Shown here piece after piece: positions 21,495 through 44,537 of a stretch of DNA of 64,000 nucleotides (position 1 is the stretch's first letter; every line of letters begins with the position of its first letter). A program made the position numbers and the translations under genes. Below the pieces are notes generated by a model. That model was not told where the DNA came from and made no database searches. It worked only from the letters and a program-made list of their open reading frames with translations. The stretch covers positions 2,346 through 66,345 of the forward strand of contig PBMH01000042.1 in NCBI GenBank assembly GCA_002722515.1. Direction: 5' to 3'. The DNA comes from Alphaproteobacteria bacterium. Its GTDB lineage: Bacteria; Pseudomonadota; Alphaproteobacteria; UBA6615.

Positions 21495-21582
21495 GCGTCG
21501 CGGCCCTTGAGCCGTTCCCTGACCCGGCCAATACTTCTAGGACGAAACGGTGAGTAACACCGCAAATGAGGGAGAAACGTCT

Positions 21583-25299: not shown

Positions 25300-25307
25300 A
25301 ATGACTC

Positions 25308-26069
25308 CTACCAGACCGACCAGCCAGCATCGACGATGACCGTCTCGCCATGGATCATCCGGGAATCCTCCGTTGCCAAGAAAACGGCAGTCCCAGTCAT
25401 ATCCTCTGGGTTGATAAAATCAATTCCTGTAGGAGTGAAGGTTTTCATCAGCTGCATATACTCTTCGTTTCCAGGCCCACGCAGATGGGCGTTCAACGGC
25501 GTCGCTACATTTCCAGGCGCGATGGAATTAACGTTGATTTTTTCCTTACCGAGCTCAGCAGCAAGCGCGCGGGTCATGTTAACGACCCCGCCCTTCGACG
25601 CGCAGTAGCCAGGACAGTTCGGAAAGGCACCGGTGCCCGCGATGGACGATATATTCACAACTTTGCCACCACCATTTTCGAGAAAATGCGGCACTAACGT
25701 CTTAACCATGAAGAAATAACCCTTGAGATTCAGGTCAAGCTGCTCATCCCATATTTCTTCGGTGGTCTCCATCACCGGAACCGTCCGAAACACCCCGGCA
25801 TTGTTGACCAGAATATCAACGCGACCGAACTCGGCGATCACATCGGACACAAGTTTCTCGATCAGCGCCACATCGGAAACGTCCGACTTGAAGGACCTGC
25901 CCTTGCCGCCCGCATCCGTAATTTCCTTAATTACCCCGGCAGCTCCGTCATCGTTGCTTTTGTATACCGTCGCAACGGTCGCACCCTCGGCCGCATAACG
26001 CTTCGCGATTGCGGCACCTATACCGACTGAACCACCGGTAACAATTGCCACCTTGTCTTTTAACCTCAT
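25308..26069 (-). CDS. SDR family oxidoreductase
   Basis: TGGSVGIG cofactor motif, NNAG, and a YCASK catalytic motif. Confidence 0.9.
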   Translation of the reverse strand: MRLKDKVAIVTGGSVGIGAAIAKRYAAEGATVATVYKSNDDGAAGVIKEITDAGGKGRSFKSDVSDVALIEKLVSDVIAEFGRVDILVNNAGVFRTVPVMETTEEIWDEQLDLNLKGYFFMVKTLVPHFLENGGGKVVNISSIAGTGAFPNCPGYCASKGGVVNMTRALAAELGKEKINVNSIAPGNVATPLNAHLRGPGNEEYMQLMKTFTPTGIDFINPEDMTGTAVFLATEDSRMIHGETVIVDAGWSVW

Positions 26070-26106
26070 GAAAAGTCTCCCTTTTATTTATTGGCGCGCT
26101 CAGCAA

Positions 26107-27864
26107 TCACGCCGAGCGCAATTCCTCCGTGCGCTCAAGGTCAATCGATAGGTCATCTGTGATCTTCACCCCATAAACCCCTTCTGCTCGCGCACGGCTG
26201 ACGATACCTTCGCGCACATCATGCAGCACCCGCTCAGGATCTCGCGACTGCGGGTCGCCATAGCCGCCTCCGCCTTGGGCGATAGAGACCAGCGTCTCGC
26301 CATCCTCTACCCAGACAATCGAACATTGGTCCAGCTGCTCCGGCTCGCGGTTCCGTTTCGCCTTAAACTGATTCGAGCGAGCGGCCGGTAGCCCGGCCCG
26401 CGCGCCCTGGGGTAAGTGAATGTTCCCATCATGGACGAATCCCGCCTCCATTCGGCAATCTACCGGGCCATACTCGACCTCAATCCCCGGCGCACCGCGA
26501 TGGCGCCCGGCTCCCTCGCTATCGGGTATGAGCCGACGGGTGTGCACATGGATCGGCGTGTAAACTTCATCGAGTTCGACAGAGTCGATGAAACACATGC
26601 CGCCATTGCCGACATGAAGCATAGTTAGCCAAGCATCCTGATGTGGCGCACCAGCGCCCGCCGTGTGGCCGAGGAACAGCTGGTTAACATAGGGTTTTCC
26701 GTTGCGGGGGTCAGTCCCAGACACAACAGCAGTCGATGGCGGACAAAAACAACCAACCTCGCCCATCCCGAACCCGTCACCCATCTCCGCCATCGCCCGC
26801 TGGGTCGCCGACACGATCCGGTCAGCTAGGTTGGTCGTAGAAGCCGAACAGCTGATGGGGTGCTGTGGTACCCCAACTACGCCAGCGTCCTTCAAGTGAA
26901 GTGTGATGCGCCTCAGGGATCCCGCATTCTTAGGTACCGTGTGCTCGATAGAATTGAATACCCCGATATATGCCGCGGTACGGGTGCACGATTCAGACAC
27001 GTTGAGACCGCAGTTCATTTGGTCGGCATTGTCACGCAGATCGACGACAATACGGCCCGCATCCGGGTCTACCGTGACGCTCGACGTCACAGTAACACCC
27101 TCCTCAGGCGTCCCGGGAATGGCGTCATGGGTCGACTGCGCCGACGCCGTGCCCTCTGGAATTTCTGCGATCGCATTGGCCATGCGCCTCTCGGAATATT
27201 CGAACCATTGGCCAGTAAAGGCGTGTAACATCTCCCACCCAACTTCCCTGCCCAACGCCAACAACTCACGTTCTCCTATCAATGCCGAGCCGAGCATGGC
27301 CAGAAAGTCGCCATGCCATTGTTCCGGGACCCGGATACGCAACTGACACATACGTACGATGTCCTCCACCGTCTCGTAGTCCTTGAGCACCTGGACCGCC
27401 GGGAAAATCAGCGCCCCCTCCTCGTAAACGTCACGCGCGGTGCCGTGATAGGTCGTCGGAATAGAGTTACCGATGTCCGCCTGATGGGCCTTGGCTAACA
27501 CCGTGAAGTGGTGGGTGCCGTCATCATCGATGACCGGCATGATAATCGTATGGTCAGCCGGATGAGAACAACCGTGGTAGGGCGAGTTATGAAGAAACGC
27601 ATCGCCTTTCTTCAAATCCGGATGAAAATCCTTCATCGAGCGCGCCATGATATCCGGACCGGACAATACGTGGATCGGGAGGCTCTCGGCCACAGACAGA
27701 AGGTCGCAATCAGCCGTCAGGATGCAGCAGGAGAAGTCCTTCGCACGGTTGAGCACGCCCGAGCGGCCGGTACGCAGTAGCGTGTTGCCCATCTTGGAGG
27801 AGATACCTTCGAACCGATTGGCCAAGATGGCGAGCTGTGCGCCGTCGAGTTGCTTGTTAATCAC
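26107..27864 (-). CDS. Hydantoinase B / oxoprolinase family protein
   Basis: 585 aa. The N-terminus DGAQLAILANRFEGI... is typical of HyuB-type subunits, and it is paired with HyuA upstream. Confidence 0.85.
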   Translation of the reverse strand: MINKQLDGAQLAILANRFEGISSKMGNTLLRTGRSGVLNRAKDFSCCILTADCDLLSVAESLPIHVLSGPDIMARSMKDFHPDLKKGDAFLHNSPYHGCSHPADHTIIMPVIDDDGTHHFTVLAKAHQADIGNSIPTTYHGTARDVYEEGALIFPAVQVLKDYETVEDIVRMCQLRIRVPEQWHGDFLAMLGSALIGERELLALGREVGWEMLHAFTGQWFEYSERRMANAIAEIPEGTASAQSTHDAIPGTPEEGVTVTSSVTVDPDAGRIVVDLRDNADQMNCGLNVSESCTRTAAYIGVFNSIEHTVPKNAGSLRRITLHLKDAGVVGVPQHPISCSASTTNLADRIVSATQRAMAEMGDGFGMGEVGCFCPPSTAVVSGTDPRNGKPYVNQLFLGHTAGAGAPHQDAWLTMLHVGNGGMCFIDSVELDEVYTPIHVHTRRLIPDSEGAGRHRGAPGIEVEYGPVDCRMEAGFVHDGNIHLPQGARAGLPAARSNQFKAKRNREPEQLDQCSIVWVEDGETLVSIAQGGGGYGDPQSRDPERVLHDVREGIVSRARAEGVYGVKITDDLSIDLERTEELRSA

Positions 27865-27877
27865 CGATACTACTCCG

Positions 27878-29941
27878 CTAGGGCTGCATCAGAAGGCTGC
27901 CGGACGCCGTCCGCTCAAAACCGGTCGCGCTGTCCGCGATCACCGTTGTGAAGGGAGATTCGATAATCGCCGGCCCCTGAAATTTCTGAGCTACCGCCAT
28001 GGTCTCGAAATCATGCACAGCCGCATCAACGGCGCCGTCGTCCGCGAAGTAGACCCGGCGGGTACCCGATACCTCGTGCCCTTTGCCCGCACCGAGTCTT
28101 CCGAGGCCGCTATCCCGCAGCCCGCAACGCGCGGTCACTGTCCACCCCACATATTCGATGACGGAACCCGGATCGCGAATCGCGAATATACGTTCATGCA
28201 TGGCATGAAATGCTTCGTTAAGGGTCTCAAGCTCGTCACTGCTGGTAAATCGATCCATTGGCAGCGGCACCTCGATCTCCCAAACCTGGGAGGCGTAACG
28301 CGCCTCGACGGAAAACTCAGTCCGCGATGAGACAGCGTTCGATCCAGGCCCATCAATAAATGCCTGAGCCTCGGCCCGCAAATCCTCGAGCGTGCGGTTC
28401 ACACCTACCTCGTCAAACGCATCAGAGGTGGTGAAGAAGGTCGCGCGATACTCGTTCGTTAGATCCGCCATCAAAGCACCTGCGGCACTCAGTCCGGCGC
28501 CAGTTTCCGGGATCAACAAACTAGGACAGCCCAGACGTCGCGCGATGTAGATAGAATTCAGGCCAGCTGCACCGCCCCCCCCGATCAGTACAGCATTTGC
28601 GGGATCGATCCCCTGATCGACGGTGATATCCGAAATCGCTTGGACCATATTTTCCGTCGCGACACTGAGGATAGATGCCGCCGCTTCTTCCACCGACAAG
28701 CCGAGTGGTACAGCCACATGGCCTTCGACGGCATTGCGCGCACCCGCCGCATCGAGATCCATTGTACCGCCAAGAAAATACCCCGGATCGAGATAGCCTA
28801 GCGTCACGCAAGCATCTGTCACGGTGGGCTCCGTGCCGCCTGCGCCGTAGCAGACAGGCCCCGGCACGGCTCCAGCGCTTTGTGGGCCAACATGCAGCAA
28901 CCCTCCCGCATCAACCCAGGCAATCGAACCACCACCAGCCCCAACGCTCTTGATATCAATTGACGGGAAGCCGGTCATGTGACCCCGAAAGGGCTGTCCA
29001 ATCCAAGTCTCCTTGGTCAGTGGGATACGCCCATCACGCACAAGGCTGACGTCATATGTCGTCCCACCGGTATCCGCAATAATTACGTTAGCCGAGGCGG
29101 ATTCGATATCAGCATAGTTACGTCCTGCAATCGGCGCCATGGAGGGACCAGAATTGATTGCGTGGATGGGCTTCTGAGCCAAGTCGCTTGCATCAAGCAT
29201 TCCGCCCTGAGATGTCAGCACCAGCGTGCGCCCTACGAAGCCGGCGGCAGCAAGACGGTCCGTCAATCCACCCAAATACTTGCCCATCAGCGGCTTTAGT
29301 GACGCATCGATCGCCGTCGCCGAAGCACGGCGGTACTCACGGAGCGCCGGGTTGATCAAGTGGGACAGCGTGTAGGGCACACCAGGTAAATTTTCTTCGA
29401 GTAGTTCACCAACGCGCAGTTCATGGGACGGATTCGAGATCGACCACAGGAAACAAACGGCTACAGCCTCTACCTCGGATGCCTTGAGTTCCTCAATGAT
29501 CGCGCGCACGGCTAACTCATCGAGCGGTGTGTGAGGCTCTCCGGCACTGTTGATGCGTTCGGGCACCTCGAATGTGAGCGAACGAGCGATATAAGGCTCA
29601 GGATATGCCGCGACGAAGTTGAACGGCTCTATTCGTCCACCCTCGCGCAGAACGAGAACATCCGGGTGCCCGGCGGTCGTGAGAAACGCCGTACGCGCGG
29701 TGTTACCGGTGATGATCGCGTTGATAGCGTGTGTAGTGCCGTGAATGAGAGTCTGACCGCGCGCGAGTAGCTCGTGAAGCTCTAGATCCCGGTCAGCCGC
29801 AGCAAGTGCAAGCGCATCTAATACCCCAGTCACTGGATCGGCAGGCGTAGTCGGCGCCTTATACATAGAAAGCGCACCACTATCTTCCTCGACGATGAGG
29901 TCCGTGAAGGTTCCCCCGGTATCACATGCAAACCGCATCAA
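27878..29941 (-). CDS. Hydantoinase A / oxoprolinase family protein
   Basis: 687 aa with ASKHA-fold motifs: CDTGGTFTDL at the N-terminus, ADTGGTTYDVS and GGGAAG. Confidence 0.85.
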   Translation of the reverse strand: MMRFACDTGGTFTDLIVEEDSGALSMYKAPTTPADPVTGVLDALALAAADRDLELHELLARGQTLIHGTTHAINAIITGNTARTAFLTTAGHPDVLVLREGGRIEPFNFVAAYPEPYIARSLTFEVPERINSAGEPHTPLDELAVRAIIEELKASEVEAVAVCFLWSISNPSHELRVGELLEENLPGVPYTLSHLINPALREYRRASATAIDASLKPLMGKYLGGLTDRLAAAGFVGRTLVLTSQGGMLDASDLAQKPIHAINSGPSMAPIAGRNYADIESASANVIIADTGGTTYDVSLVRDGRIPLTKETWIGQPFRGHMTGFPSIDIKSVGAGGGSIAWVDAGGLLHVGPQSAGAVPGPVCYGAGGTEPTVTDACVTLGYLDPGYFLGGTMDLDAAGARNAVEGHVAVPLGLSVEEAAASILSVATENMVQAISDITVDQGIDPANAVLIGGGGAAGLNSIYIARRLGCPSLLIPETGAGLSAAGALMADLTNEYRATFFTTSDAFDEVGVNRTLEDLRAEAQAFIDGPGSNAVSSRTEFSVEARYASQVWEIEVPLPMDRFTSSDELETLNEAFHAMHERIFAIRDPGSVIEYVGWTVTARCGLRDSGLGRLGAGKGHEVSGTRRVYFADDGAVDAAVHDFETMAVAQKFQGPAIIESPFTTVIADSATGFERTASGSLLMQP

Positions 29942-30104: not shown

Positions 30105-31052
30105 ATGACGCTTCATCCGCAAGCGCAAGCGGTTCTGAACCTACTAAACGAGGCGCCGACGCCGCTCAAGGAAATGCTTCCGGATGAGGCGCGCGAAGCC
30201 TATGACCGCTTTATCGTGCCACGCAATTTCGACCCGGTACCGCTTGCCCGTATCGAGGACCGTAAGATTTCCGGGCCGGGCGGCGATATGCGGGTCCGCA
30301 TCTATTGGCCCAACGACGAAAGCGGACCGTTGCCGGTCTTCCTTTTCTTCCATGGGGGGGGCTTCGTAATCGGCAGCATAGAGAGCCGCGACCCCCAGTG
30401 CCGCATGATTTCGCGTGATACACCATGCATCGTCGTCTCCGTAGATTACCGGCTTGCGCCCGAGCACCCTTTCCCCGCCGCGCCTGACGACTGCTGGGCA
30501 GCGCTGCAATGGGTGCATGCGAAGGCCGGATCGTTAGGTGGCGATCCGGCCCGGATAGCTGTCGGCGGCGAGAGCGCAGGTGGCAATCTGGCGGCCGGGC
30601 TGGCCCTCCGGGCCCGGGACACTGGCGGCCCCGCGCTGAGCGCGCAGATTCTCGTCTACCCGGTCACCGACATGTTCTTTGAACAGGATCTGCCCTCCCG
30701 CATGTTTCTCGACGAGGACTACTTTCTGACCCGCGACCAAATGACCTGGTACTATGAGTGTTACACACCGGGAATAACCTCGACGGAAGACATTATGCTG
30801 TCACCCAGCAAATCCGCTAACCTGGACAACCTACCATTCACCCAGATAGTGACCGCAGAGTTCGATCCACTGCGCGACTATGGAAAACAGTACGGCGAAC
30901 GCCTAGCCGCCGCAGGCGTTACCGTGGAATATAGCTGTATGGCCGGCATGATCCACGGATACTGGCACTATGGAAAGCTGATCGATGCCGCCACCGAGGC
31001 ACTAAATCTTTCGATTAACGCCCTGCAACGCGCTTTCAACGACCGGAGTTGA
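30105..31052 (+). CDS. Alpha/beta hydrolase, hormone-sensitive-lipase-type esterase
   Basis: HGGGF oxyanion motif (FFHGGGFVIGS) and GESAGG nucleophile elbow. Confidence 0.85.
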   Translation: MTLHPQAQAVLNLLNEAPTPLKEMLPDEAREAYDRFIVPRNFDPVPLARIEDRKISGPGGDMRVRIYWPNDESGPLPVFLFFHGGGFVIGSIESRDPQCRMISRDTPCIVVSVDYRLAPEHPFPAAPDDCWAALQWVHAKAGSLGGDPARIAVGGESAGGNLAAGLALRARDTGGPALSAQILVYPVTDMFFEQDLPSRMFLDEDYFLTRDQMTWYYECYTPGITSTEDIMLSPSKSANLDNLPFTQIVTAEFDPLRDYGKQYGERLAAAGVTVEYSCMAGMIHGYWHYGKLIDAATEALNLSINALQRAFNDRS

Positions 31053-31056
31053 CATC

Positions 31057-31851
31057 ATGGATGCTGCCGCAATCGACAAGGCCGCCACAGCTATCGCCGA
31101 GAATAGACTGAACCGAACCAAACTCGACATGCTTTCGGCCGAATATCGCCCCGCCGACCTGAACGACGCATATTCGATTCAGGAGCGACACAATGTAATC
31201 CTCAGCAGGAGCGGGCTCGGCAAGCGCGTTGGCTACAAGATTGGCTGCACCACGCCGGTGATGCAGGAATATATGAACATTCACGAGCCCTCATTCGGCG
31301 AGGTGTTCGACACAGCGGTTCACCAAGATCACGTCGACCTGACATTCACTAATTATGTGAACCCCGGCATCGAGACTGAAATCGCGGTATGGCTCGCATC
31401 GGACATGCCGGCGGCAGATGGGCCGTATACGCGCGATAATGTGCGCAACGCGATCGGCGCCGTAATGATATCTATTGAGATTGTTGAGGCGCGCTATCGG
31501 AACTATCGAAAGCTCGATACCCCGACTATGGTCGCCGATAACTTTTTCAACACCGCCGTGATACTCGGCGACCCGGTCCCCAACTGGCATAAAATGGATC
31601 TCGCCGCGGCTGAGGGCACGATACTGCTCAACGGCAAGCTACTCGGCACCGGCCTCGGGTCGCTCATCATGGGCCACCCCTTCGAGGCCCTCGCATGGCT
31701 CGCCAATCGCCTGTGTGAACGTAGCCGCCACCTCGAGGCGGGAAAGTTCGTAACACTTGGATCCGTGATCGCAACCCACTGGGTCTCACAAGGTGACTGT
31801 ATCGAACATTCGATACCGGGCCTCGGATCCATCTCGGTATCATTCGCCTAG
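31057..31851 (+). CDS. 2-keto-4-pentenoate hydratase family (MhpD/HpcG-like)
   Basis: GYKIGCT, ETEIAV, EIVEAR and ADNF blocks characteristic of this FAH-fold hydratase/decarboxylase family. Confidence 0.75.
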   Translation: MDAAAIDKAATAIAENRLNRTKLDMLSAEYRPADLNDAYSIQERHNVILSRSGLGKRVGYKIGCTTPVMQEYMNIHEPSFGEVFDTAVHQDHVDLTFTNYVNPGIETEIAVWLASDMPAADGPYTRDNVRNAIGAVMISIEIVEARYRNYRKLDTPTMVADNFFNTAVILGDPVPNWHKMDLAAAEGTILLNGKLLGTGLGSLIMGHPFEALAWLANRLCERSRHLEAGKFVTLGSVIATHWVSQGDCIEHSIPGLGSISVSFA

Positions 31852-31880
31852 GTCAGAGATGAAAACGGAGAATAATTTTT

Positions 31881-32945
31881 ATGAAAAGTTATCAGCTCAT
31901 TGCCGTCAACCAGCCCCTCAAACTCATCGAGAGCGATACGCCGGAACCTCAAGGCTGTGAGGTCCTGCTCAAGATAACTGCCTGCGGTGTCTGCCATTCC
32001 GACCTGCATTTCTGGCACGGCTACTACGATCTCGGTGACGGCACTAAGATGACCCTTGAAGACCGCAACATAGAGCTACCATTCACGATGGGCCACGAGC
32101 CCGTCGGCGAGGTGGTGGCGGTTGGGCCGGACGCAGACGGCGATGTCGAAACCGGAAAGACTTACCTAATTTTCCCCTGGCTCGGCTGCGGCGACTGCGC
32201 TCGCTGTAACGAGGGCCGCGAGAACGACTGTCCAAACACTGCACCGCTAGGGGTACGCCGCCCAGGCGGCTATGCCGACCATGTGGTGATTCCCGACGAA
32301 AAGTATCTCGTGGACATCGAGGGGGTAGACCCCCATTACGCCTGCACTCTGGCCTGTGCGGGCATCACCTCTTTCAGCGCGATCCGCAAGGCACGAGACA
32401 TCGCCACTGACGATAAGCTAGTCATCATCGGTGCTGGCGGCGTAGGACTTACCGGCGTTGGTATAGCAGCTGACTATATAACCAACGAGAAGATCGTCGT
32501 GGATGTTGATGAGGAGAAACTCGCCGCCGCGCGCGAGGCCGGGGCAAACCACACGATCAACCCACTGCGCGAAGATGCGCGGGCGGCGATAGCAAGTTTG
32601 ACTACAGCCGGCGCAGGCGCCGTTGTCGATTTCGTTGCAAATACAGAGACTGCAAGTTTAGGCATCGACGTGCTCCGGCGCGGTGGTAGCTACATCGCCG
32701 TCGGTCTCTACGGCGGACGTATCAACATTCCTTCTCTGGCATTGCCAACTCGGGATATAGCGCTGCGTGGTTCCTATGTGGGCACGCTCAGCGAGATGCA
32801 TGAGCTGATGGGGTTGGTTAAGGCCGGTAAAGTTGACCCGATCCCCGTAGCCTCACGACCGATGTCGGAAGTTACCGAGACACTTCAGGACCTCGAGGCT
32901 GGGCGGATTATCGGCCGCGTGGTGGTGGTACCCGAAGGAGCCTAG
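31881..32945 (+). CDS. Zinc-dependent alcohol dehydrogenase
   Basis: CGVCHSDLH catalytic-zinc motif, structural-zinc Cys cluster GCGDCARC, and GAGGVG Rossmann motif. Confidence 0.85.
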   Translation: MKSYQLIAVNQPLKLIESDTPEPQGCEVLLKITACGVCHSDLHFWHGYYDLGDGTKMTLEDRNIELPFTMGHEPVGEVVAVGPDADGDVETGKTYLIFPWLGCGDCARCNEGRENDCPNTAPLGVRRPGGYADHVVIPDEKYLVDIEGVDPHYACTLACAGITSFSAIRKARDIATDDKLVIIGAGGVGLTGVGIAADYITNEKIVVDVDEEKLAAAREAGANHTINPLREDARAAIASLTTAGAGAVVDFVANTETASLGIDVLRRGGSYIAVGLYGGRINIPSLALPTRDIALRGSYVGTLSEMHELMGLVKAGKVDPIPVASRPMSEVTETLQDLEAGRIIGRVVVVPEGA

Positions 32946-33946
32946 AGCTCTGAGCCGACCAACCCCATAGCGGCGCACAACAGACCAGGCACCCGGGCCT
33001 CCGCCTCTTCGAGCTCCCATGCCGGATACGCCCCAACGCGTGCGCGCCGACCCTGCTGCAGAGCGATGACGGCCCAGCGCAGATGGGCGAAAACCTCCCA
33101 AAACCGGACCCTGGCACGATCGGGGACATGCCCGCCGGCCGCCGCGTAGGCGCGATAGAATGTTGTTCGAGAACCCAGACCACCGGCTTCACGATCAGGC
33201 GCATTCCCGCGCCAGCAAGCGCCGCAGAACCAGCCAATATCCTCAGCCGGATCACCCCAGCCGGCGAATTCCCAATCCAGAACCGCCGTCAAATGGTCGC
33301 CATCAACTAGAAAGTTACCAGTGCGAAAGTCGCGATGGACTAGCCGCGCCTGAATTGCGAGGGGCAGATTCGTCCGGAGCCACGCAAGACCGGCCGCCAG
33401 ACCATACGATATGTTCGTGGGAAGCGGCGAAAGTGCCTCAACCCAAGTTTCCAGTTGCATCACCCGTTCACTAGCGAAAACCGCCGTTCCCTCCCCACCG
33501 GGCGAAACAAGATGAATACGAGCAAGCGCAGCAGCCAATTCGCGAATGAGAGCTACGTTGTCGTCCCGTGCAGTCAATCGATCAACTGCGGTGTCGCCAG
33601 CCACATACCGGGTCACCAGGAACGGAATCTTAGCATTCGACAACCACATTGGCTCGGCCACCGGAACACCTGCTGAGTGAGCAATCCGAAGGAACGCAAA
33701 CTCGTCTGACTTCGAAAGGCTCTCGGGAAGTTGCACATCTGGGCCAGCGCGCAGCACGTAGGGAGTGATCTTTGCCCCTACTTCAACATCAATGCGCCAG
33801 TTGTGCTGGACTGCACCGCCGGACATAAGACGTAGACTTGTAATGCGTGCTTCCGGTGACAGGAGCCGGTCAGCGAACCAGATTCCGAGCTGGTCCTCCG
33901 AGACCGGAAACCGGGGGGACGGCCCCGCGTGCAGTCCGTCAGGCAC
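32942..33946 (-). CDS. Phosphotransferase (APH / choline-kinase-like) family protein
   Basis: Brenner motif LVHRDFRTGNFLV and DWEFAGWGDPAEDI. The GTG start overlaps the ACAD stop by 1 nt. Confidence 0.8.
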   Translation of the reverse strand: MPDGLHAGPSPRFPVSEDQLGIWFADRLLSPEARITSLRLMSGGAVQHNWRIDVEVGAKITPYVLRAGPDVQLPESLSKSDEFAFLRIAHSAGVPVAEPMWLSNAKIPFLVTRYVAGDTAVDRLTARDDNVALIRELAAALARIHLVSPGGEGTAVFASERVMQLETWVEALSPLPTNISYGLAAGLAWLRTNLPLAIQARLVHRDFRTGNFLVDGDHLTAVLDWEFAGWGDPAEDIGWFCGACWRGNAPDREAGGLGSRTTFYRAYAAAGGHVPDRARVRFWEVFAHLRWAVIALQQGRRARVGAYPAWELEEAEARVPGLLCAAMGLVGSEL

Positions 33947-35145
33947 TAGTCCCAGCTCCAGAAACCAGTCCCCTCACCTAGCAGGTGACGCGCTATGACC
34001 ATCTTGTGCACCTCGGAGGCGCCATCGACCAGCTTCGCCTGCGGCGCGTAGCGGTACATCCATTCGAGCGGCAAATCCTTTGAATAACCCCGCGCACCGT
34101 TGAGCTGGATCGACGTCGAAATTGTTTTGTGCAGGATCTCAGACACCCAGATCTTAGCCATCGAAACCTCCTTGCGTGCCTGGTCGCCAGTATCGAGTTT
34201 CGCTGCGGCGCGCATGGTTAGTAATCGACCAATTTCTATATCCATTGCCGCATCTGCAAGCATCCACTGGACACCTTCGTGATCCGCTAGGACCGACCCG
34301 AAATTCTGCCGATTTTTAACATAGCCAAGACATTCCTCGACCGCTCGTTTCGACATGCCCAGCCATCGCATGCAATGCGTCAGGCGCGCCGTACCCAGGC
34401 GAATTTGTACGGACTTCATACCTTCACCAACATCCATCAATCGATTCTCGTCCTCGATTTCCAGACCATCAAACACCACCTCACAGTGCCCGCCATGCTC
34501 TTCAGGGCCCATGATCGGAATCCGGCGTTCGATGTGCCAACCAGGTTGGTCCTTGTGAAACAAGAAGGTTGTAAGCGCACCTCGCTTGTTGTCCGATGTG
34601 CGTGCTAGGAGAATGAAATGTTGCGCCCCCTGGGCCCCGGTAATGAACCATTTGCGGCCGCTGATGACCCACTTGTCGTTCCCCTTGCGTTCGGCGCGGG
34701 TCAACATCATCGTCGGGTCGGATCCCGCTCCTGGAGCCGGTTCGGTCATAACGATAGAGGAACGGACATCACCGTCGATAATTGGCTGTAGCCAGCGATC
34801 CTTCTGATCTTCGCGTGCAACGCGATCGAGCAGGATCATATTACCGTCGTCGGGTGCGGCGCAGTTAAATACGACCGGCCCGAACCGTGAGCGCGCGGCC
34901 TCCTCGTAGAACGTCGCCATACCGACCGTGTCCAGGCCGAGGCCGCCGCGCCCTGCCGGCATCTGTGGCGCCCAAAGGCCAGCGGCCTTGGCCTTCTCCC
35001 GCAGCGTCTCAAGTGGAACCTCGGCGATATTTTCGTGATCATCAAAATTCCTTTGGTCCGCTTCAATCGGCATAATCTCGCCGGCAACGAAGCCGGCTAC
35101 CTTCCGCCGCAGCTCTTCCAGTTCTTTGGGTAGAGAGAAATCCAA
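33946..35145 (-). CDS. Acyl-CoA dehydrogenase family protein, ACAD10/ACAD11-like C-terminal pattern
   Basis: ACAD fold. The C-terminal block THCMRWLG...KEVSMAKIWVSE...LVDGASEVH resembles the ACAD10/11-type sequence (recalled HHCMR...KEIAMIKV...LADGPDEVH). Confidence 0.85.
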   Translation of the reverse strand: MDFSLPKELEELRRKVAGFVAGEIMPIEADQRNFDDHENIAEVPLETLREKAKAAGLWAPQMPAGRGGLGLDTVGMATFYEEAARSRFGPVVFNCAAPDDGNMILLDRVAREDQKDRWLQPIIDGDVRSSIVMTEPAPGAGSDPTMMLTRAERKGNDKWVISGRKWFITGAQGAQHFILLARTSDNKRGALTTFLFHKDQPGWHIERRIPIMGPEEHGGHCEVVFDGLEIEDENRLMDVGEGMKSVQIRLGTARLTHCMRWLGMSKRAVEECLGYVKNRQNFGSVLADHEGVQWMLADAAMDIEIGRLLTMRAAAKLDTGDQARKEVSMAKIWVSEILHKTISTSIQLNGARGYSKDLPLEWMYRYAPQAKLVDGASEVHKMVIARHLLGEGTGFWSWD

Positions 35146-35168
35146 ACCTGCGTCTCCTGTTTCGTGGC

Positions 35169-35939
35169 CTACAAGGCCGAAAGGGTCAGGCCACCATCAA
35201 CACCAATGATCGACCCAGTCATATAGGCGCCCGCCGGGCCGGCGAGCAGTAGCAACACACCGTCGAGGTCTTCCGGGTCACCAAAACGTTTCACAGGGAC
35301 CCGCTTCCGAATGCGTTGCCCCGGCTCACTGTCGAGGAATGAATCATTCAACTCGGTGCGGATATAGCCGGGGGCAATCGCGTTCACAAGAACACCGTCG
35401 CGAGCTAGTTCAAGGGCCAGCGTCTCCGTCATACTCACAAGCCCTGCTTTTGAAATTCCATAGGACTGGGTACGCTTGGCCACGGTTTTCCAGCCCAGAA
35501 CCGAGGCGACATTGATGATCCGTCCGCCATGGCCATGTTCGATCATATTGCGACCGACCTCACGCGCAACTAGCCAAGCACCCTTCAGATTCGTATCTAT
35601 CACACGATCCCACTCCTCCTCGTCCATATCGAGAGTCAGGGCCGTGGGCGGCACGCCGGCATTGTTAATCAGGATCTTCACTGCGCCGAGCTGCTGCTCG
35701 ACAATGCGCACAGCCCGGGCAACAGAGTCCGCTTCCGTAACATCCAGCTCCACTGGCAATGCGCGCCCACCATCGGCCTCGATGATTGCAGCCAGATTCA
35801 TCAAGCGGTCGGTACGCCGTGCCGCAATAGCAACCTTAGCGCCGGCGCGCGCCAAAGTGCGAGCGAAATGCGCACCCAAACCACTAGACGCGCCCGTGAC
35901 AAAGGCTACGTTTTCGCTGAGGTCAAACCGACCGTTCAT
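35169..35939 (-). CDS. SDR family oxidoreductase
   Basis: TGASSGLG, NNAG and YGISK motifs. Confidence 0.9.
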   Translation of the reverse strand: MNGRFDLSENVAFVTGASSGLGAHFARTLARAGAKVAIAARRTDRLMNLAAIIEADGGRALPVELDVTEADSVARAVRIVEQQLGAVKILINNAGVPPTALTLDMDEEEWDRVIDTNLKGAWLVAREVGRNMIEHGHGGRIINVASVLGWKTVAKRTQSYGISKAGLVSMTETLALELARDGVLVNAIAPGYIRTELNDSFLDSEPGQRIRKRVPVKRFGDPEDLDGVLLLLAGPAGAYMTGSIIGVDGGLTLSAL

Positions 35940-35969
35940 TCGTCTCTCCTCAATTCCGAGTGTTTGCCG

Positions 35970-35988
35970 TACTGGCTCGTTGCCAGTA
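35970..35988. promoter_or_regulatory. Inverted repeat TACTGGC-N5-GCCAGTA in a divergent promoter region
   Basis: Perfect 7-bp arms, read directly. It lies between the SDR start (35939, minus) and the enoyl-CoA hydratase start (36028, plus). Confidence 0.4.
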
Positions 35989-36027
35989 AGTTTATGGATC
36001 CGTTGGATGAAATCGGAAACCTATCCT

Positions 36028-36813
36028 ATGACCACCATTCTAGTAGACAAGCAGGGGGCCATCGCAACCCTCACACTTAATCGCCCCGACGTGTTAAACG
36101 CCCTCAATCGGGACATGGCCCTCGAACTTAATGCAGCCGTCGAGGATGTGGCCAATGATGACGAGGTTCGGGCAGTGATCCTGCGTGGCGCGGGCCGAGG
36201 CTTTATGGCCGGGGGAGACGTCGCCACCTTTCACAAGAACATCAACACAATCAAAGAAACGATTGATGATCTGATTGGCCTTTACCATAAGGCCGTCATC
36301 GGACTCTCGGCCATGCCGAAACCGGTCGTTGCGGCCATACACGGGCCAGTCGCCGGCGCCGGCGTGGGAATGGCTCTGAACGCAGATATCGGGATCGCAG
36401 CAGATAATGCGGTCTTCACCATGGCTTATATCGGAATTGCCACCATCCCGGATGGCGGGTCCACCTATCTGCTTCCGCGCATCATCGGACGACGTAAGGC
36501 GCTCGAACTAGCCATGCTCAACGAGCCCATCGATGCCGTGACGGCGTTAAATCTCGGACTGGTCAATCGGGTGGTACCGGCCGAAGAGCTCGAAGGCGAA
36601 ACTATGGCGATGGCGGAACGCTTCGCGAAGGGACCGACAGCTGCATATGCGAACACAAAGGCCCTCATAAATCAAAGCTTCGAGGCCGAGAACATGACAG
36701 CCCATCTGTCAGCCGAGCACGCAGCATTTCTGCGCTGTGCGGGAACGGGCGACTTCGCAGAAGGTGTGGCCGCGTTCGTCGAGAAGCGCCACCCCGGATT
36801 CAAAGGCGACTAA
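36028..36813 (+). CDS. Enoyl-CoA hydratase/isomerase
   Basis: LTLNRPDVLNALN, GAGRGFMAGGD and HGPVAGAG. The true start is the internal ATG at 36028. The upstream part of the 445-aa track ORF is antisense to the SDR gene. Confidence 0.85.
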   Translation: MTTILVDKQGAIATLTLNRPDVLNALNRDMALELNAAVEDVANDDEVRAVILRGAGRGFMAGGDVATFHKNINTIKETIDDLIGLYHKAVIGLSAMPKPVVAAIHGPVAGAGVGMALNADIGIAADNAVFTMAYIGIATIPDGGSTYLLPRIIGRRKALELAMLNEPIDAVTALNLGLVNRVVPAEELEGETMAMAERFAKGPTAAYANTKALINQSFEAENMTAHLSAEHAAFLRCAGTGDFAEGVAAFVEKRHPGFKGD

Positions 36814-36815
36814 AA

Positions 36816-37280
36816 GTGTCACCGCCGTGCATTTCGGGATTCACACGCCACGATGCACAGCAAGTGCTCGATACGGTTATGACGCCATGGCTCGATGAGC
36901 TCGGCATGCAAGTTGATGAGGTTACGGAGAACGGCGCAGTCATCCGCCTGCCTTGGCATGAACGAATTTCGCGCGACGGCGGGCTAGTCACCGGACAAGC
37001 GTTGATGTCGTTCGCGGATGCCGCGATGGTGGTAGTAATTTCATCGGCTATTGGCGGCTTTCACAAAATGGCCACTGTCGACATGACAACAACATTCTTG
37101 GCCCCTGCCTACAACACCGACATCATCGCACACGGCGAGATTTTGCGGCGCGGCAAGCGGCTGGTTTACGGACGCATTGACCTCGAGACCGCCGGAGATA
37201 GAATGCCGGTCGCTCTCATCCAAACGACTTGGGCTCTGCTCGGTGAGCCTCCAGGACAATCGAGCAATTTAACTACCTAG
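36816..37280 (+). CDS. PaaI-type hotdog-fold thioesterase
   Basis: GGLVTGQALMSFADAA...TVDMTTTFLAP...GRIDL pattern. GTG start 2 nt after the crotonase stop. Confidence 0.7.
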   Translation: MSPPCISGFTRHDAQQVLDTVMTPWLDELGMQVDEVTENGAVIRLPWHERISRDGGLVTGQALMSFADAAMVVVISSAIGGFHKMATVDMTTTFLAPAYNTDIIAHGEILRRGKRLVYGRIDLETAGDRMPVALIQTTWALLGEPPGQSSNLTT

Positions 37281-38302
37281 CCAATACGCATAAGCGCAGC
37301 AGCCGTACCTCCAAGAATTTTCTTGCGCTCGGCGGCCGTCAGCTTCGTGGTGCTCTCGACGAACGCTACCGGCTCAAACTCCTGCATATCGAAGGGGTAG
37401 TCGGTTCCCATCATAACTCGGTCAACACCAACCATATCGACTAGATATTGGAGCTGGTCGGGTCTGAATACCACGGTGTCGTAATATAGTTCGCCGAGGT
37501 ACTCACTCGGTGGCCGGCTGATCTTGTCACGTAGTTCCGGACGATACTCCCAGCTATGGTCCATTCGCCCAGCGTAGTAGGGAAAATACCCGCCGCCATG
37601 CGCGATACAAATCTTGATGCCGGGATGGCGATCAAGAACGCCTCCGAAAATAAGATGTGTGACCGCTATCTGCTCCTCGAGCGGCTGGCCAACACAGTTA
37701 TGCATGAAAAAGGGCCGCAGACGTGCCCCATCTGTGAAACCAAACGGATGCAGAAAGAGCGGCACGTCGAGCGCAACAGCCTCGGCATAGACTAGGTCGA
37801 AGCGTTCATCCGACAACTCCACACCGTCGATATTGGTGGATAGGATGAAAGCGCGGATATCGAGTTCCTTCACCGCACGGCGCATTTCGGCAACGGATGC
37901 TGCCGTATCCTGCAACGGCAGAGTCCCCATGGCGGCGAAGCGACCAGGATTACCTGAAACAAGCTGCGATACGTCATCATTCTGCACGCGGGCCAGCTCA
38001 TTTCCGAGCTCCGGATCGGTCCAATAGTAGAACTGAATCGGCACGGGGCTGACGATCTGCATATCTACCTTAGTTCCATCCATATCAGCTTCGCGCGGCT
38101 TCAGATCAATCATCTTCGGCACGAGGCTTGGTATGTTCTCGTTATCAACCGACATCGACGTCGGGTGAGCATAGAACATGTAGGGGTCTCGGCTCGGATC
38201 CAGAATTTCCTCGGGTTTATAATGCTTGTCCATCAGCGCCTTCGCCGATGGCGAGAACACATGACAGTGCATATCGATTGCAACAATTTCGTCAGTGGTC
38301 AT
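37277..38302 (-). CDS. Amidohydrolase_2 family protein (ACMSD / LigW / LigJ-like decarboxylase or hydratase)
   Basis: AIDMHCHVF metal-binding HxH, CIAHGGG and MGTDYPFD. ATG at 38302 follows GGGGAGGA. Confidence 0.8.
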   Translation of the reverse strand: MTTDEIVAIDMHCHVFSPSAKALMDKHYKPEEILDPSRDPYMFYAHPTSMSVDNENIPSLVPKMIDLKPREADMDGTKVDMQIVSPVPIQFYYWTDPELGNELARVQNDDVSQLVSGNPGRFAAMGTLPLQDTAASVAEMRRAVKELDIRAFILSTNIDGVELSDERFDLVYAEAVALDVPLFLHPFGFTDGARLRPFFMHNCVGQPLEEQIAVTHLIFGGVLDRHPGIKICIAHGGGYFPYYAGRMDHSWEYRPELRDKISRPPSEYLGELYYDTVVFRPDQLQYLVDMVGVDRVMMGTDYPFDMQEFEPVAFVESTTKLTAAERKKILGGTAAALMRIG

Positions 38303-38374
38303 ATTTTCCTCCCCGTATTTATCCGACCATTTGATCGGTTGCGGCAAAGCTTAACACCGTCCGCACAAAGCGAA

Positions 38375-38399
38375 AGGGCGGTGGCATACCCACCGCCCT
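38375..38399 (-). terminator. Intrinsic-terminator-like hairpin after dctM
   Basis: Perfect 10-bp GC-rich stem agggcggtgg / ccaccgccct with a 5-nt loop. On the minus strand it is followed by TTCGCTTTGT. Confidence 0.5.
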
Positions 38400-38429
38400 C
38401 TCCAAACAAGATTACCTCTCGATGGTCGG

Positions 38430-39767
38430 CTATCTAAATGATCTCTTAAGGTCGACTAGCGCCAGCGGGATTTCTGGGAAGATCATCACCAGGATCAGGA
38501 CGAACAGCATAACGAGCGCGAACGGTGCAGCACCGATGAAGATGTCCGCCAGCGATATATCCTTCTGAACCAGGGTCGACTTGATCACATAGACCGCCAG
38601 CCCCAGCGGGGGAGTTAGCAGCCCTATCTCAACTGCAATAACCGTCACGACACCGAACCAAACGAGATCGATGTTGAATGGTGCCAAGACCACGAGGAAC
38701 AGCGGCACCGCTATAAGCATGATTGAGACGGAGTCGATAATGGTACCCAGAATAATCAGGATAACTACATACAAGATCATTAACTGCGCAAAGCTGGCAT
38801 TCATTTCACCTATCACATTGCCGAGTTCGGTAGGCAGGCCGGAAATGCCAAGCATGCGCGAGTACATGCTCGCTGCGATGATAAGGAAGAGAAGGGTCGC
38901 AGTGATATGGCCCGTCTCTACCAATACATCCCAAAGTTTGCGCGGGGTAATCTGCTTGCGCATCAGCGCAAAGAGAAATGCGACAAAAGCCCCCGCGGCT
39001 CCCGCCTCAGTAGGCGTATACAAACCAGCATAGATACCGCCGAGAACGACGAGCACGAGGATAACGATAGGATAGGTCTTCGCGAACAACTCCCCGGATG
39101 GCATTTTCTTCTGGTCCATGTGCTGATCAAGCGCCCCTGGCTCCGCCACTACGCCGGGAAAACCATAGGCCATGATCGCAATCAGGACACAGAAGCAGAA
39201 TGTCAGAAGAACGCCAGGGCCAATGCCGGCGATGAACAAATCACCAACCGATTCTTCTGCTATTAGCGCAAAGATGATTAATAAGATCGACGGCGGGATG
39301 AGCATGCCAAGAACTGATGAACCCGCGACGGTGCCGACTGCGAATCGACCCTTATAGCCGTAGCGCAACATCTCGGGCACCGAGATACGGGTGAATACCG
39401 TCGCCGACGCAATAGAAACTCCTGTGATTGCCGCAAAGATCGCATTCGCAATCACAGTCGCCATGCCCAGCCCACCACGTACACGCCGCAGGGCATTCTG
39501 GGCGATATCGTAGGTGTCACGCCCCATACCTGCCGTACTGACAAGGAGTCCCATCAGAACAAACAAAGGAATGACGCCGAAGAGGAAATCCGCAACGGTT
39601 TTCGCTGCTGATATCCAGAGCAGGCTGATCGCGATCTTGACATTGCCCTTAATAATCCAGACCCCGACAAACGAGATCAGGGCTAGCACGACAGGAACAT
39701 GCATGCCGATATATATCAGCAGCAACATGGCGATTATGGAGATAATGCCAATCTCGAAACCGGTCAT
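38430..39767 (-). CDS. dctM: TRAP transporter large permease
   Basis: 445 aa, polytopic, with a 4-nt overlap with the small-permease gene. Confidence 0.9.
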   Translation of the reverse strand: MTGFEIGIISIIAMLLLIYIGMHVPVVLALISFVGVWIIKGNVKIAISLLWISAAKTVADFLFGVIPLFVLMGLLVSTAGMGRDTYDIAQNALRRVRGGLGMATVIANAIFAAITGVSIASATVFTRISVPEMLRYGYKGRFAVGTVAGSSVLGMLIPPSILLIIFALIAEESVGDLFIAGIGPGVLLTFCFCVLIAIMAYGFPGVVAEPGALDQHMDQKKMPSGELFAKTYPIVILVLVVLGGIYAGLYTPTEAGAAGAFVAFLFALMRKQITPRKLWDVLVETGHITATLLFLIIAASMYSRMLGISGLPTELGNVIGEMNASFAQLMILYVVILIILGTIIDSVSIMLIAVPLFLVVLAPFNIDLVWFGVVTVIAVEIGLLTPPLGLAVYVIKSTLVQKDISLADIFIGAAPFALVMLFVLILVMIFPEIPLALVDLKRSFR

Positions 39768-40372
39768 CTCTCGGTCTCCTCAATGGCTGCCACTTCCACG
39801 TCGACGGCCTCCTCATGTTCGAGCGGGGCTCTACCGAACAGCCCACGAATATTGTCCACGATGGCCAGGAAGAACTGGATACCGAGAAGTGTGCAGCCGA
39901 CTACCAATGCCAGCCGCTGCGGCCATTCCGGAAATGTGAAAACCCCTGTATTCCCGACAAAATGCCCGCCGTGATAGGCTTGCAGCCACTTTGGCCACCC
40001 CCCAATGACTATCGCCACCATCAGGCCAACTCCGGCCAAGTGAAACAGAATACCGAGGATGTTACCGATGGGCGGCCATTTGATCAGGACACGGCCATAG
40101 AGCGCATCCGACCGGGTAATACGTCCCACCTTCAACGTATGTGCCAACTGAAGATAGAGGATCGTGACGATCGAAATCTCAACGATTTCGGTTACACCGC
40201 TAAGAGGGGAGTTGAAAACAAACCGCAGCGTGATATCGAGAGTGATCAACAACATCAGGATAAAAATCCAACCCGACGCCACAGCGTTGCTTACCAGAAC
40301 GATCCAGTCGAATACTCTTCGAAGGACGTCCAGAATTCCGATAATTGCGCTCAATGGAAGTCGGGGAGCCAC
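39764..40372 (-). CDS. dctQ: TRAP transporter small permease
   Basis: 202 aa with 4 TM segments, positioned between the binding protein and DctM. Confidence 0.8.
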   Translation of the reverse strand: MAPRLPLSAIIGILDVLRRVFDWIVLVSNAVASGWIFILMLLITLDITLRFVFNSPLSGVTEIVEISIVTILYLQLAHTLKVGRITRSDALYGRVLIKWPPIGNILGILFHLAGVGLMVAIVIGGWPKWLQAYHGGHFVGNTGVFTFPEWPQRLALVVGCTLLGIQFFLAIVDNIRGLFGRAPLEHEEAVDVEVAAIEETER

Positions 40373-40432
40373 CTTGCGGCGGCTCCCCTCCCTATTTCAT
40401 ATTGATGTCTGTTTAAGATACTCGCGAATTGT

Positions 40433-41524
40433 CTATTCGCGATCCCACTGACGAGCAATCGGCTGGTTGTTAGCGCGCATCTCGTCCATCCAGGCCTTAA
40501 GAATCTCGGTGCCAGGCTGACCAGCTTTATTTCGCTGCTCTGCCCACTGCTTGCCCAAGGGCGGAAGGGCTTTGGCCCAAGCATTCCGCTGCGCAGTCGA
40601 GGCCTTAGTCACCTTAGTGCCGAATTCCTTCTCACAGCGCGCGAGACCCCATTTTGCACCGCCATTCACACGCTTGACATTTTCTTCAACCCAAGCCGAA
40701 GTCGAGGCCTGAAGTGCTTTCTGCACCTCTTCGGGTAAGCTGTCCCAAACGTCACGGTTCACGTTCAGCGAGAAACCATTCACACCACCGAGGGTCGCAT
40801 CGAATGCGAACGGAGCCGGCTCACAAAGCTTGAACGCCCCTGCGCCCTGGCGCCAGACTATCATTGCCTCATAGATGCCTGTACTCAGGCTGTTGTACGC
40901 GTCCGCAAGGTTCGTCTGCACACCAGCAGCACCGATTGCAAGAACCCACGGAAGGTTAGGGCCAGCCGCACCAACCTTAAGCCCCTTGACCTGGCCAAGG
41001 TCGCTGATCGGCTTCGCTGACCAGAGCATGTAGTTGTCAACCGCACCCGTCGGAGCGAGCGGAACCTGGTTGAATTCGTTAAGCCAAGTCTGGTTGTACT
41101 GCGGGAAAGTGTCCACCATCTTCTGTGTCGTACGACTAATAAGCGCGATGTCATCACTCGTGAACGGCGTCTTGAACGACACATCGTAGAGCGGGACCTT
41201 ATCAGCATGGAAAGCGGTCACGATTACGCCAAGGTCGCCAATACCCGTCTCAACACCTTCAAGCTCACCACGCGGCTTGACGATCTGGCCGCTGATGCCC
41301 TTGTTCCAGTTGATCTTATAGTTACCGGTCTTCGCGAGCGCGGCGTCTACGGCAGGCATATACGCATCAACCAGAGAACCAACCCAGGTTGCAGGCGGTG
41401 GATAACCGGAAATTGCCGTCAGGTTAATTGTTTCCTCACCGACCGCCGGTGCCGATACGGCAACAGTTGCAGTCGCAGCTGCGGCGATGAGCAGCGCTGT
41501 AGACTTAGACATTTTGGACATCAA
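40433..41524 (-). CDS. TRAP transporter substrate-binding protein (DctP-type by gene context)
   Basis: Signal peptide MMSKMSKSTALLIAAAATATVAVSAPA, about 360 aa, and the first gene of a P-Q-M arrangement. Confidence 0.75.
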   Translation of the reverse strand: MMSKMSKSTALLIAAAATATVAVSAPAVGEETINLTAISGYPPPATWVGSLVDAYMPAVDAALAKTGNYKINWNKGISGQIVKPRGELEGVETGIGDLGVIVTAFHADKVPLYDVSFKTPFTSDDIALISRTTQKMVDTFPQYNQTWLNEFNQVPLAPTGAVDNYMLWSAKPISDLGQVKGLKVGAAGPNLPWVLAIGAAGVQTNLADAYNSLSTGIYEAMIVWRQGAGAFKLCEPAPFAFDATLGGVNGFSLNVNRDVWDSLPEEVQKALQASTSAWVEENVKRVNGGAKWGLARCEKEFGTKVTKASTAQRNAWAKALPPLGKQWAEQRNKAGQPGTEILKAWMDEMRANNQPIARQWDRE

Positions 41525-44506: not shown

Positions 44507-44537
44507 TCGTCCTTCCTCCGATATCGTGGTAAGACCG

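Follow-up and report, generated by a model that had tools for sequence, protein, structure and literature searches.

Three adjacent genes on the minus strand of an alphaproteobacterial contig probably form a self-contained 'phosphorylate, then eliminate' module that would bring 4-oxo- and 4-hydroxyacyl-CoA esters into beta-oxidation, a reading that we rate at roughly 75%. The stretch of DNA analysed, hereafter the window, covers 64,000 nucleotides of contig PBMH01000042.1 (positions 2,346 to 66,345, forward strand) in assembly GCA_002722515.1 (Alphaproteobacteria, UBA6615). The genes encode a short-chain dehydrogenase/reductase (SDR), an acyl-CoA dehydrogenase (ACAD) and a kinase of the APH fold. 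An initial annotation had proposed an Lva-like module by comparison with Pseudomonas putida, and signature residues together with a three-gene phylogeny support that proposal. We infer the reactions, the position of the hydroxyl and the physiological substrate from homology throughout.

Arrangement of the SDR, ACAD and kinase genes

The SDR gene (35939..35169; 256 aa, ATG start), the ACAD gene (35145..33946; 399 aa, TTG start with AGGAGA 7 nt upstream) and the kinase gene (33946..32942; 334 aa, GTG start) are all on the minus strand and tightly packed. A gap of 23 nt separates the SDR stop from the ACAD start, and the kinase GTG sits in ...GGGAC-TAG-TG..., sharing one base with the ACAD stop (TAGTG); direct reading bears out this layout as it was first noted. 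The non-ATG starts of the ACAD and the kinase are credible because gene lengths are unchanged in relatives of the trio, two of which (L004 and L105) also keep the 1-nt ACAD/kinase overlap and the kinase N-terminus MPDG. The trio is a translationally coupled, packed gene set. Its Pfam and NCBIfam matches are generic, with none at equivalog level.

The ACAD has the active site of a phosphate-eliminating flavoenzyme

The Pfam domains Acyl-CoA_dh_N, Acyl-CoA_dh_M and Acyl-CoA_dh_1 were all found above cut-offs in the ACAD, which aligns over its full length with ACAD11 and with PDB 4hr3 (the three-domain FAD-binding ACAD fold). Its best phmmer matches in the PDB were 4hr3 from M. abscessus (9e-60) and ACAD11 (2wbi and 8v3u, about 2e-57), with the best canonical ACAD at 4e-46, eleven orders of magnitude below the ACAD11 matches. 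The motifs THCMRWLG (residues 256-263), KEVSMAKIW (325-333) and LVDGASEVH (372-380), which the initial annotation had named as an ACAD10/11-type pattern, were confirmed, as was its reading of V-D-G where MCAD-type enzymes have Y-E-G. Asp374 falls in the column that holds the catalytic Glu in canonical ACADs (IYEGT among the same-genome paralogues) and the catalytic Asp in human ACAD11 (LADGPDEVH), and the sequence alignment at this position is unambiguous. No Glu stands at the alternative position either: Arg254, the counterpart of the conserved R631 of ACAD11, is preceded by Ala253, at the position where, in line with work on MCAD T255E/E376G, IVD and LCAD place their alternative base.

Rashan et al. 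(PMC12440821) defined this class of enzyme by D753, a catalytic Asp in place of the usual Glu, together with R626, H634 and R637, which bind the 4-phosphate through the 'HCMR' motif; all four residues were validated by mutagenesis. Every one has an equivalent in the aligned window ACAD (R249, H257, R260 and D374, for R626, H634, R637 and D753). The cradle formed by R249 and H257-Cys-Met-Arg260 is absent from every canonical ACAD aligned, and none of the nine other ACADs of the same genome has the Asp or HCMR features; the window ACAD is the genome's sole enzyme of this kind. It has exactly the same stretch ARLTHCMRWLG as the ACADs located inside Pseudomonas lva operons. We propose the window ACAD as a candidate enzyme for eliminating phosphate from 4-phosphoacyl-CoA to give 2-enoyl-CoA.

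The kinase and the SDR resemble LvaA and LvaD

The kinase (Pfam APH, 7e-33) has Arg66 in strand beta-3, Glu82 in helix alpha-C, His204-x-Asp206-x4-Asn211 and Asp224-Trp-Glu226, all invariant in 36 homologues. A family profile built from these 36 members and searched against the PDB matched 3dxp (4e-28), 9o56 (6e-28), ACAD11 (2e-25) and Rv3168 (3e-21), with psilocybin, macrolide and aminoglycoside kinases at 1e-10 or worse; structures resembling the N-terminal domain of ACAD10/11 were thus about 15 orders of magnitude ahead of other APH classes. The AlphaFold2 (AF2) model (pLDDT 93) has the APH fold, with 3dxp as best fold match and the 25-hydroxysteroid kinase 9fsg as second best (TM 0.69-0.72). 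The fold search separates APH classes weakly (1e-15 vs 1e-11), and ACAD11 was not within its top 50. In a bacterial homologue from clade A, our name for the branch of ACAD10/11 orthologues, the beta-3 Arg, the alpha-C Glu, the catalytic Asp, the Asn and the DWE motif are essential (bioRxiv 10.1101/2025.09.10.675409); the window counterparts are R66, E82, D206, N211 and D224/E226. K216, a Lys two residues past the catalytic Asp, corresponds to Arg208 in the window kinase, as in the LvaA type. Lva kinases and the window kinase also have in common the motifs GGA(I/V)QxNW, HRD(F/Y)RTGN and DWEFxGWGDPxEDxGWF.

The gene is single-copy in 11/11 same-genus genomes. The other APH gene of the window genome (contig C19) was considered as an Lva-like kinase and rejected, being a ThrB-type homoserine kinase (2ppq, 2e-125). 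In Pseudomonas, as at this locus, the kinase (LvaA) diverges faster than the ACAD (LvaC). We propose the window kinase as a candidate ATP-dependent 4-hydroxyacyl-CoA kinase that would work without LvaB.

The SDR matches Pfam adh_short (4e-55) and adh_short_C2 and has TGxxxGxG at residues 15-22, NNAG at 92, Ser146 and Tyr160-x3-Lys164. Arg41-Arg42, just past strand beta-2, suggests the use of NADP(H). It is 50-53% identical to the SDRs of lva operons, against 29-38% to 11 SDR paralogues of the same genome, and is a candidate 4-oxoacyl-CoA/4-hydroxyacyl-CoA oxidoreductase.

Three congruent trees place the trio in the Lva branch

The search for Lva references was prompted by a kinase homologue (L007) with a DUF6285 gene next downstream. 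DUF6285 was detected in 12 of 201 Pseudomonas genomes, and in all six lva loci examined (L098-L103) it lay, by BLAST annotation, inside an APH-DUF6285-ACAD-SDR-AMP-ligase layout. Pfam annotation of one of these loci (L100) gave a divergent sigma54/PrpR regulator followed by APH (353 aa), DUF6285 (118 aa, about 12-13 kDa), ACAD (390 aa), SDR (255 aa), an AMP-ligase, DUF485 and an SSF symporter. This is the published lvaRABCDEFG arrangement, including the 12-kDa LvaB (PMC6692424). A scan of named genomes found lva operons in P. veronii DSM 11331, P. putida KH-21-134, P. peradeniyensis, P. guariconensis, P. soli and others. The lva-operon kinase is 27% identical to the kinase domain of mouse ACAD11, in agreement with the 29% reported for LvaA (PMC11342911).

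In the ACAD tree, the window type (the window, L004 and L005) was sister to the Lva type (Pseudomonas and L007) with support of 96/90, and the two together were sister to the ACAD10/11/FadE2 clade (100/98), which was represented by human ACAD11, 4hr3 and 13 bacterial ACADs sampled from 80 retrieved (56-62% identical to human ACAD11). The ACAD therefore groups with LvaC-type and ACAD10/11-type enzymes and not with canonical short- or medium-chain ACADs, the grouping that would have told against the initial annotation. Clade-A kinases (ACAD11, 3dxp, 9o56 and ACAD-adjacent genes) formed one group in the kinase tree (92/99); the window kinase clustered with the LvaA type, which again favours the initial annotation, and antibiotic kinases ranked far lower in the profile search. 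The SDR tree joined the window and LvaD types (100/99), apart from SDRs linked to clade A and from the 11 same-genome paralogues.

Pairwise identities follow the same pattern, with the window ACAD 42% identical to the Lva type and 35% to ACAD11, and the window kinase 37% identical to the Lva type and 21-25% to the ACAD11 type. The motifs also speak against membership of clade A: the window has FNCAAPDDGNMI and ARLTHCMR, whereas clade A has FNCxAPDTGNME and GRIHHCMR. Given three congruent trees, the trio has evolved as one unit, and has done so in the Lva branch, not in the branch orthologous to ACAD10/11. The suggestion that the trio is an ACAD10/11-like split version was therefore not upheld; its branch is sister to the ACAD10/11-orthologous clade.

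Marinobacter sp. F3R08 encodes both a clade-A ACAD-SDR-APH module (L032) and an Lva-type kinase locus (L179). Given this co-occurrence in one genome, the clade-A and Lva lineages seem to be functionally distinct.

LvaB is missing from the genome and the genus

LvaB is Pfam DUF6285, a name that we did not meet in the literature searched. The initial annotation had noted the lack of an LvaB-like gene beside the trio, and this holds well beyond the locus: DUF6285 was not detected at E<=1 in the window genome (83% complete), nor was it found in nine genomes of the same genus (87-98% complete), all of which carry a window-type kinase (54-62% identity). In three genomes of the same family (G216, G221 and G218), the best kinase match is at most 44% identical and has DUF6285 immediately downstream. 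DUF6285 also directly follows the kinase in L007, L106, one further contig and the Pseudomonas lva operons, and it stands immediately 3' of every Lva-type kinase examined (e.g. L100:8901-9257, L007:8025-8417 and L106:7972-8319). The domain is present in the control genomes of Caulobacter vibrioides and Thermus thermophilus as well.

This clean dichotomy marks the window type as a predicted LvaB-independent sub-clade. Since DUF6285 is absent genome-wide, the kinase of this sub-clade would have to work alone, like the kinase domains of ACAD10/11. The kinases of B. pseudomallei and of mammals (ACAD10/11) are active without LvaB (PMC11342911), and the lva cluster of P. citronellolis lacks lvaB (PMC6692424). 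Window and LvaA-type kinases differ most clearly in the C-terminal helices and in two short deletions; the C-terminal helix of the window type has YPxWELEEAExRVPGL, against GEExSLELALT in the Lva type. A link between these differences and LvaB is speculation on our part.

Predicted pathway and alternative explanations

In the proposed sequence of reactions, the SDR would reduce a 4-oxoacyl-CoA to the 4-hydroxyacyl-CoA, or interconvert the 4-hydroxy stereoisomers through the ketone. The kinase would then move the gamma-phosphate of ATP onto the 4-hydroxyl, with Asp206, Asn211, Asp224, Arg66 and Glu82 as predicted catalytic residues. On the FAD enzyme, Asp374 would take the alpha-proton while Arg249, His257 and Arg260 grip the 4-phosphate, and expulsion of phosphate would leave a 2-enoyl-CoA with no net redox change. 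The crotonase encoded divergently from the trio could hydrate this product to a 3-hydroxyacyl-CoA for ordinary beta-oxidation. As substrate we consider an oxo- or hydroxy-acid of short or medium chain length probable, made or imported by the conserved island in which the trio is embedded (described below).

Several observations weigh against this interpretation. Characterised proteins are moderately similar, at 37-53% identity for the Lva type and 25-35% for ACAD11, and the kinase tree joins the window family and the LvaA type with support of only 63/87. The Lva-type references were picked by the DUF6285 anchor, operon architecture and organism names, not by KT2440 accession numbers. LvaB is essential in P. 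putida, and the window sequence shows no replacement for it. The ACAD11 Arg adjacent to the alpha-C Glu, a CoA contact according to molecular dynamics (MD) modelling, is Asp81 here; the second modelled CoA-contact Arg (R176) has Arg161 as its counterpart. Rates of divergence are uneven, the kinase changing much more quickly than the ACAD: between the window and L004 (5009-7996), identities are 59% for the kinase, 78% for the SDR and 89% for the ACAD. The conserved island contains no CoA ligase or transferase: the nearest candidates are 7 kb away (42866-44602), a ligase candidate also lies at 21550-23205, and the best LvaE-like acyl-CoA synthetase of the genome is on another contig (C9:16930-18603), 52% identical to the P. 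veronii lva ligase. Finally, the locus was found in marine DNA metagenome runs only and in no RNA runs.

An ordinary beta-oxidation operon, made up of a conventional ACAD, a 3-hydroxyacyl-CoA dehydrogenase or FabG-like SDR and an unrelated small-molecule or antibiotic APH kinase, would agree with family matches that are only generic and with a region where further ACAD, ECH, SDR and ligase genes abound. However, the ACAD has Asp for the catalytic Glu, Ala at the alternative site (253) and the HCMR cradle, and it splits from nine canonical paralogues of its own genome; matches of the kinase family to antibiotic kinases are no better than 1e-9, compared with 1e-28 for ACAD-linked kinases, and the three genes travel together through very different genomic contexts. 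Active-site residues, together with the joint evolution of the three genes, largely exclude this explanation, which we consider highly improbable. We think it just as hard to believe that the kinase acts on a lipid alcohol instead of a CoA ester (e.g. 1-O-alkylglycerol, as for ACAD10-type kinase domains) and that the ACAD is independent of it, although a 2026 preprint reports that ACAD10 phosphorylates alkylglycerols, as do several prokaryotic homologues of its kinase domain, and that acetyl-CoA partly stimulates this activity. The window kinase is translationally coupled to, and has co-diverged with, a phosphate-cradle ACAD and an LvaD-like SDR, and no ether-lipid genes were found nearby. PDB 9o56, presumably one of the prokaryotic alkylglycerol kinases of that preprint, is among the best profile matches of the window kinase family, but the window kinase is only 21% identical to it and lies in the Lva branch, not among the clade-A kinases that were tested.

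A further explanation keeps the phosphorylation-elimination logic and changes the substrate class or the position of the hydroxyl, for example to a hydroxylated branched, cyclic or ring-cleavage-derived CoA ester produced by the island, in place of a plain 4-hydroxy fatty acyl-CoA or levulinyl-CoA. The trio does form a sub-clade of its own at 37-53% identity to Lva proteins, and its neighbours in every case include an ACMSD-like decarboxylase, an MhpD/NahK-like enzyme, an esterase, an alcohol dehydrogenase (ADH) and a caprolactamase-like HyuAB pair. The two modules of F3R08 (L032 and L179) show that paralogous modules seem distinct in specificity, and a kinase acting on a hydroxysteroid (9fsg) is the second-best fold match of the kinase model. 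Nevertheless, R249/H257/R260 and D374 occupy the same columns as in ACAD11 and LvaC, which would place the phosphate about two carbons past C-beta, at C4, and the SDR is firmly LvaD-like. We therefore regard a different substrate class as unlikely; it overlaps largely with the 4-oxo/4-hydroxyacyl-CoA module that we favour, the sole difference being the identity of the substrate.

Neighbouring genes and the conserved island

An 88-nt divergent promoter region (35940..36027) separates the SDR-ACAD-kinase operon from a crotonase-thioesterase operon. It contains a perfect inverted repeat, TACTGGC-N5-GCCAGTA (35970-35988), with no regulator gene adjacent to it. L004 shares only the left half-site, AAACTTAC(C/T)GGC (AAACTTACYGGC), and L005, L104 and L105 do not preserve the repeat as a whole. 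The first divergent gene (36028..36813, plus strand) encodes a crotonase-family enoyl-CoA hydratase/isomerase of 261 aa (Pfam ECH_1, 9e-56), which keeps its divergent position in L004, L005/L006 and L104 and is proposed to hydrate or isomerise the enoyl-CoA product. It is followed by a hotdog-fold 4HBT/PaaI-type thioesterase gene (36816..37280, plus strand; 154 aa, Pfam 4HBT 5e-8, TIGR00369 1e-11), kept in L005, L006, L104 and L105. The 4HBT gene of Marinobacter locus L017 likewise precedes a clade-A ACAD. The link between these two genes and the trio, drawn in the initial annotation, finds its support in conserved synteny.

On the other side of the trio, a convergent operon on the plus strand encodes an HSL-family esterase (30105-31052), an MhpD/NahK-like hydratase or decarboxylase of the FAA-hydrolase fold (31057-31851; MhpD 1sv6 and NahK in the PDB at 3e-28) and a Zn-dependent ADH (31881-32945), the three families being assigned by Pfam/NCBIfam. 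The operon has the same order in L004, L005, L006, L104 and L105, and it is from this synteny that a functional tie of the operon (30105..32945) to the trio is suggested. Beyond the thioesterase, the minus strand carries the DctP-DctQ-DctM genes of a tripartite ATP-independent periplasmic (TRAP) transporter, then an ACMSD-like amidohydrolase_2 (37277..41524 in all, by Pfam; amidohydrolase_2 at 37277-38347, matching ACMSD structures at 1e-57). This flank is syntenic in L004, L005/6 and L104, and L105 keeps the TRAP genes. At 24097..29941, also on the minus strand, Pfam identifies HyuA-HyuB of the ATP-dependent lactamase/oxoprolinase family, an SDR and an MFS transporter. HyuA, within 26107-29941, matches PDB 6yra most closely, at 8e-125, an entry deposited as '5-oxoprolinase' that corresponds to the P. 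jessenii caprolactamase. HyuA is syntenic and 80-86% identical in L104 and L105 (86% to L104).

The island recurs on five contigs, independent of one another, with kinases at 46-59% identity to the window kinase. Its recurring parts are DctPQM, amidohydrolase_2 (once an alpha/beta-hydrolase), 4HBT and ECH, SDR-ACAD-APH, the ADH, FAA-hydrolase-fold enzyme and esterase, and HyuA-HyuB-SDR. The order SDR-ACAD-APH is found in L004, L005, L006, L104 and L105, with DUF6285 added downstream in L106; in L007 the order is ACAD-SDR-APH-DUF6285. Judging by the relatives of HyuA, amidohydrolase_2 and the FAA-hydrolase-fold enzyme, lactam or ring-cleavage reactions may lie upstream of the trio. In L106 (3055-8319), SDR-ACAD-APH-DUF6285 lies directly downstream of genes for a tryptophan 2,3-dioxygenase, an aminotransferase, a 2-hydroxyacid dehydrogenase and a class II aldolase. 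A Rhodospirillaceae metagenome-assembled genome (L027:763-7251) has a clade-A APH-ACAD pair divergent beside a HyuA/HyuB pair; the association was considered as an orthologous link and given little weight, these HyuAB proteins being only 31-36% identical to those of the window.

The three enzyme types of the trio recur in clade-A clusters of Marinobacter and Stutzerimonas. More broadly, clade-A clusters of Marinobacter, Stutzerimonas and Bacillaceae bring a 4HBT thioesterase, a Zn-ADH, SurE and a ligase together with ACAD, SDR and APH, and given such similar gene sets the enzymes around the window trio are typical for this chemistry. ACAD10/11/Lva-type modules seem to have an SDR partner as a rule. 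The cluster of Marinobacter maritimus (L017:4638-11791) reads SDR-4HBT-ACAD-SDR-APH-SurE-acyl-CoA ligase, with related clusters at L035, L034 and L008, and those of Bacillaceae read ACAD-SDR-TetR-APH-ZnADH-ligase.

Comparison with known systems

LvaD, LvaA and LvaC, encoded by the lvaABCDE genes of P. putida, are the nearest relatives of the window SDR, kinase and ACAD in the three trees, but the gene order is D-C-A in the window and A-B-C-D-E in P. putida. The sigma54 regulator LvaR, LvaE, the LvaF/G symporter and LvaB are not adjacent to the window trio, which, unlike the P. putida operon, is accompanied by a TRAP transporter and a distinct island conserved in marine Alphaproteobacteria. The lva-type cluster of P. 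citronellolis LA18T also lacks lvaB, and the organism grows on levulinate (PMC6692424). That cluster has a histidine-phosphatase-family gene in the place of lvaB, whereas none stands beside the window trio, and its LvaA, LvaC and LvaD are 59-78% identical to those of KT2440, making it Lva type proper.

ACAD10 and ACAD11 resemble the window proteins in the Asp and the R/H/R cradle, in the two-step chemistry (predicted for the window) and in not needing an LvaB-like subunit; in them, however, the kinase and the ACAD are fused, and in the window they are separate. Free 4-hydroxy acids are not substrates of ACAD10/11. Among bacterial clade-A genes (L017, L035 and L034), the arrangement ACAD-SDR-APH is frequent, accompanied by a 4HBT thioesterase and a CoA ligase. 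Examples from this clade are a pair in B. pseudomallei (PMC11342911) and the structures 8v3u/8v3v, 2wbi, 4hr3, 3dxp and 9o56. The 25-hydroxysteroid kinase of Sterolibacterium denitrificans (9fsg/9ft5) has the same APH fold as the window kinase at about 19% identity. It activates an unreactive alcohol as a phosphate ester before elimination; the alcohol in question is a tertiary one on a steroid and no CoA ester, and the partner lyase is not an ACAD.

One published identity value deserves comment. In ACAD10 and ACAD11, the ACAD domains were reported to be 62% and 56% identical to 'LvaC' (Paquay et al., PMC11342911). The P. putida protein used (Q88K54, supplement file 4 of that paper) carries the clade-A motif FNCSAPDTGNMET, and the ACADs of lva operons (L098-L103) are only 33% identical to human ACAD11; therefore, the published value was probably obtained with a clade-A paralogue in place of the operon ACAD.

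Biological significance

The chemistry of the phosphorylated-intermediate route for 4-hydroxy and 4-oxo acids is established for Lva and ACAD10/11 and was resolved recently (Lva in 2017, ACAD10/11 in 2024-25). According to PMC6692424, homologues of lvaABCD were already noted in Alpha-, Beta- and Gammaproteobacteria by Rand et al. New here are a picture of at least three co-evolving SDR-ACAD-kinase lineages among bacteria (the orthologues of ACAD10/11, an Lva type that has DUF6285 and a type free of it), an LvaB-free sister lineage in a marine alphaproteobacterial family, the fixed island around it and the explicit equation of LvaB with DUF6285. It is possible, if rather doubtful, that the LvaB-independent kinase/lyase lineage is the exit step of an undescribed pathway in marine Rhodospirillales-like bacteria, with the TRAP transporter and the enzymes of the island serving to degrade an abundant ocean lactone, lactam or ring-cleavage compound via 4-oxo/4-hydroxyacyl-CoA. 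If this is true, comparison with LvaB-dependent kinases would reveal the role of DUF6285/LvaB, a domain that now gains a concrete functional context as the partner of the Lva kinase. A natural LvaB-independent kinase of the Lva branch could also simplify engineered pathways for levulinate or gamma-valerolactone. For the bacteria themselves, the conserved island appears to point to a marine substrate that is funnelled through 4-hydroxyacyl-CoA chemistry.

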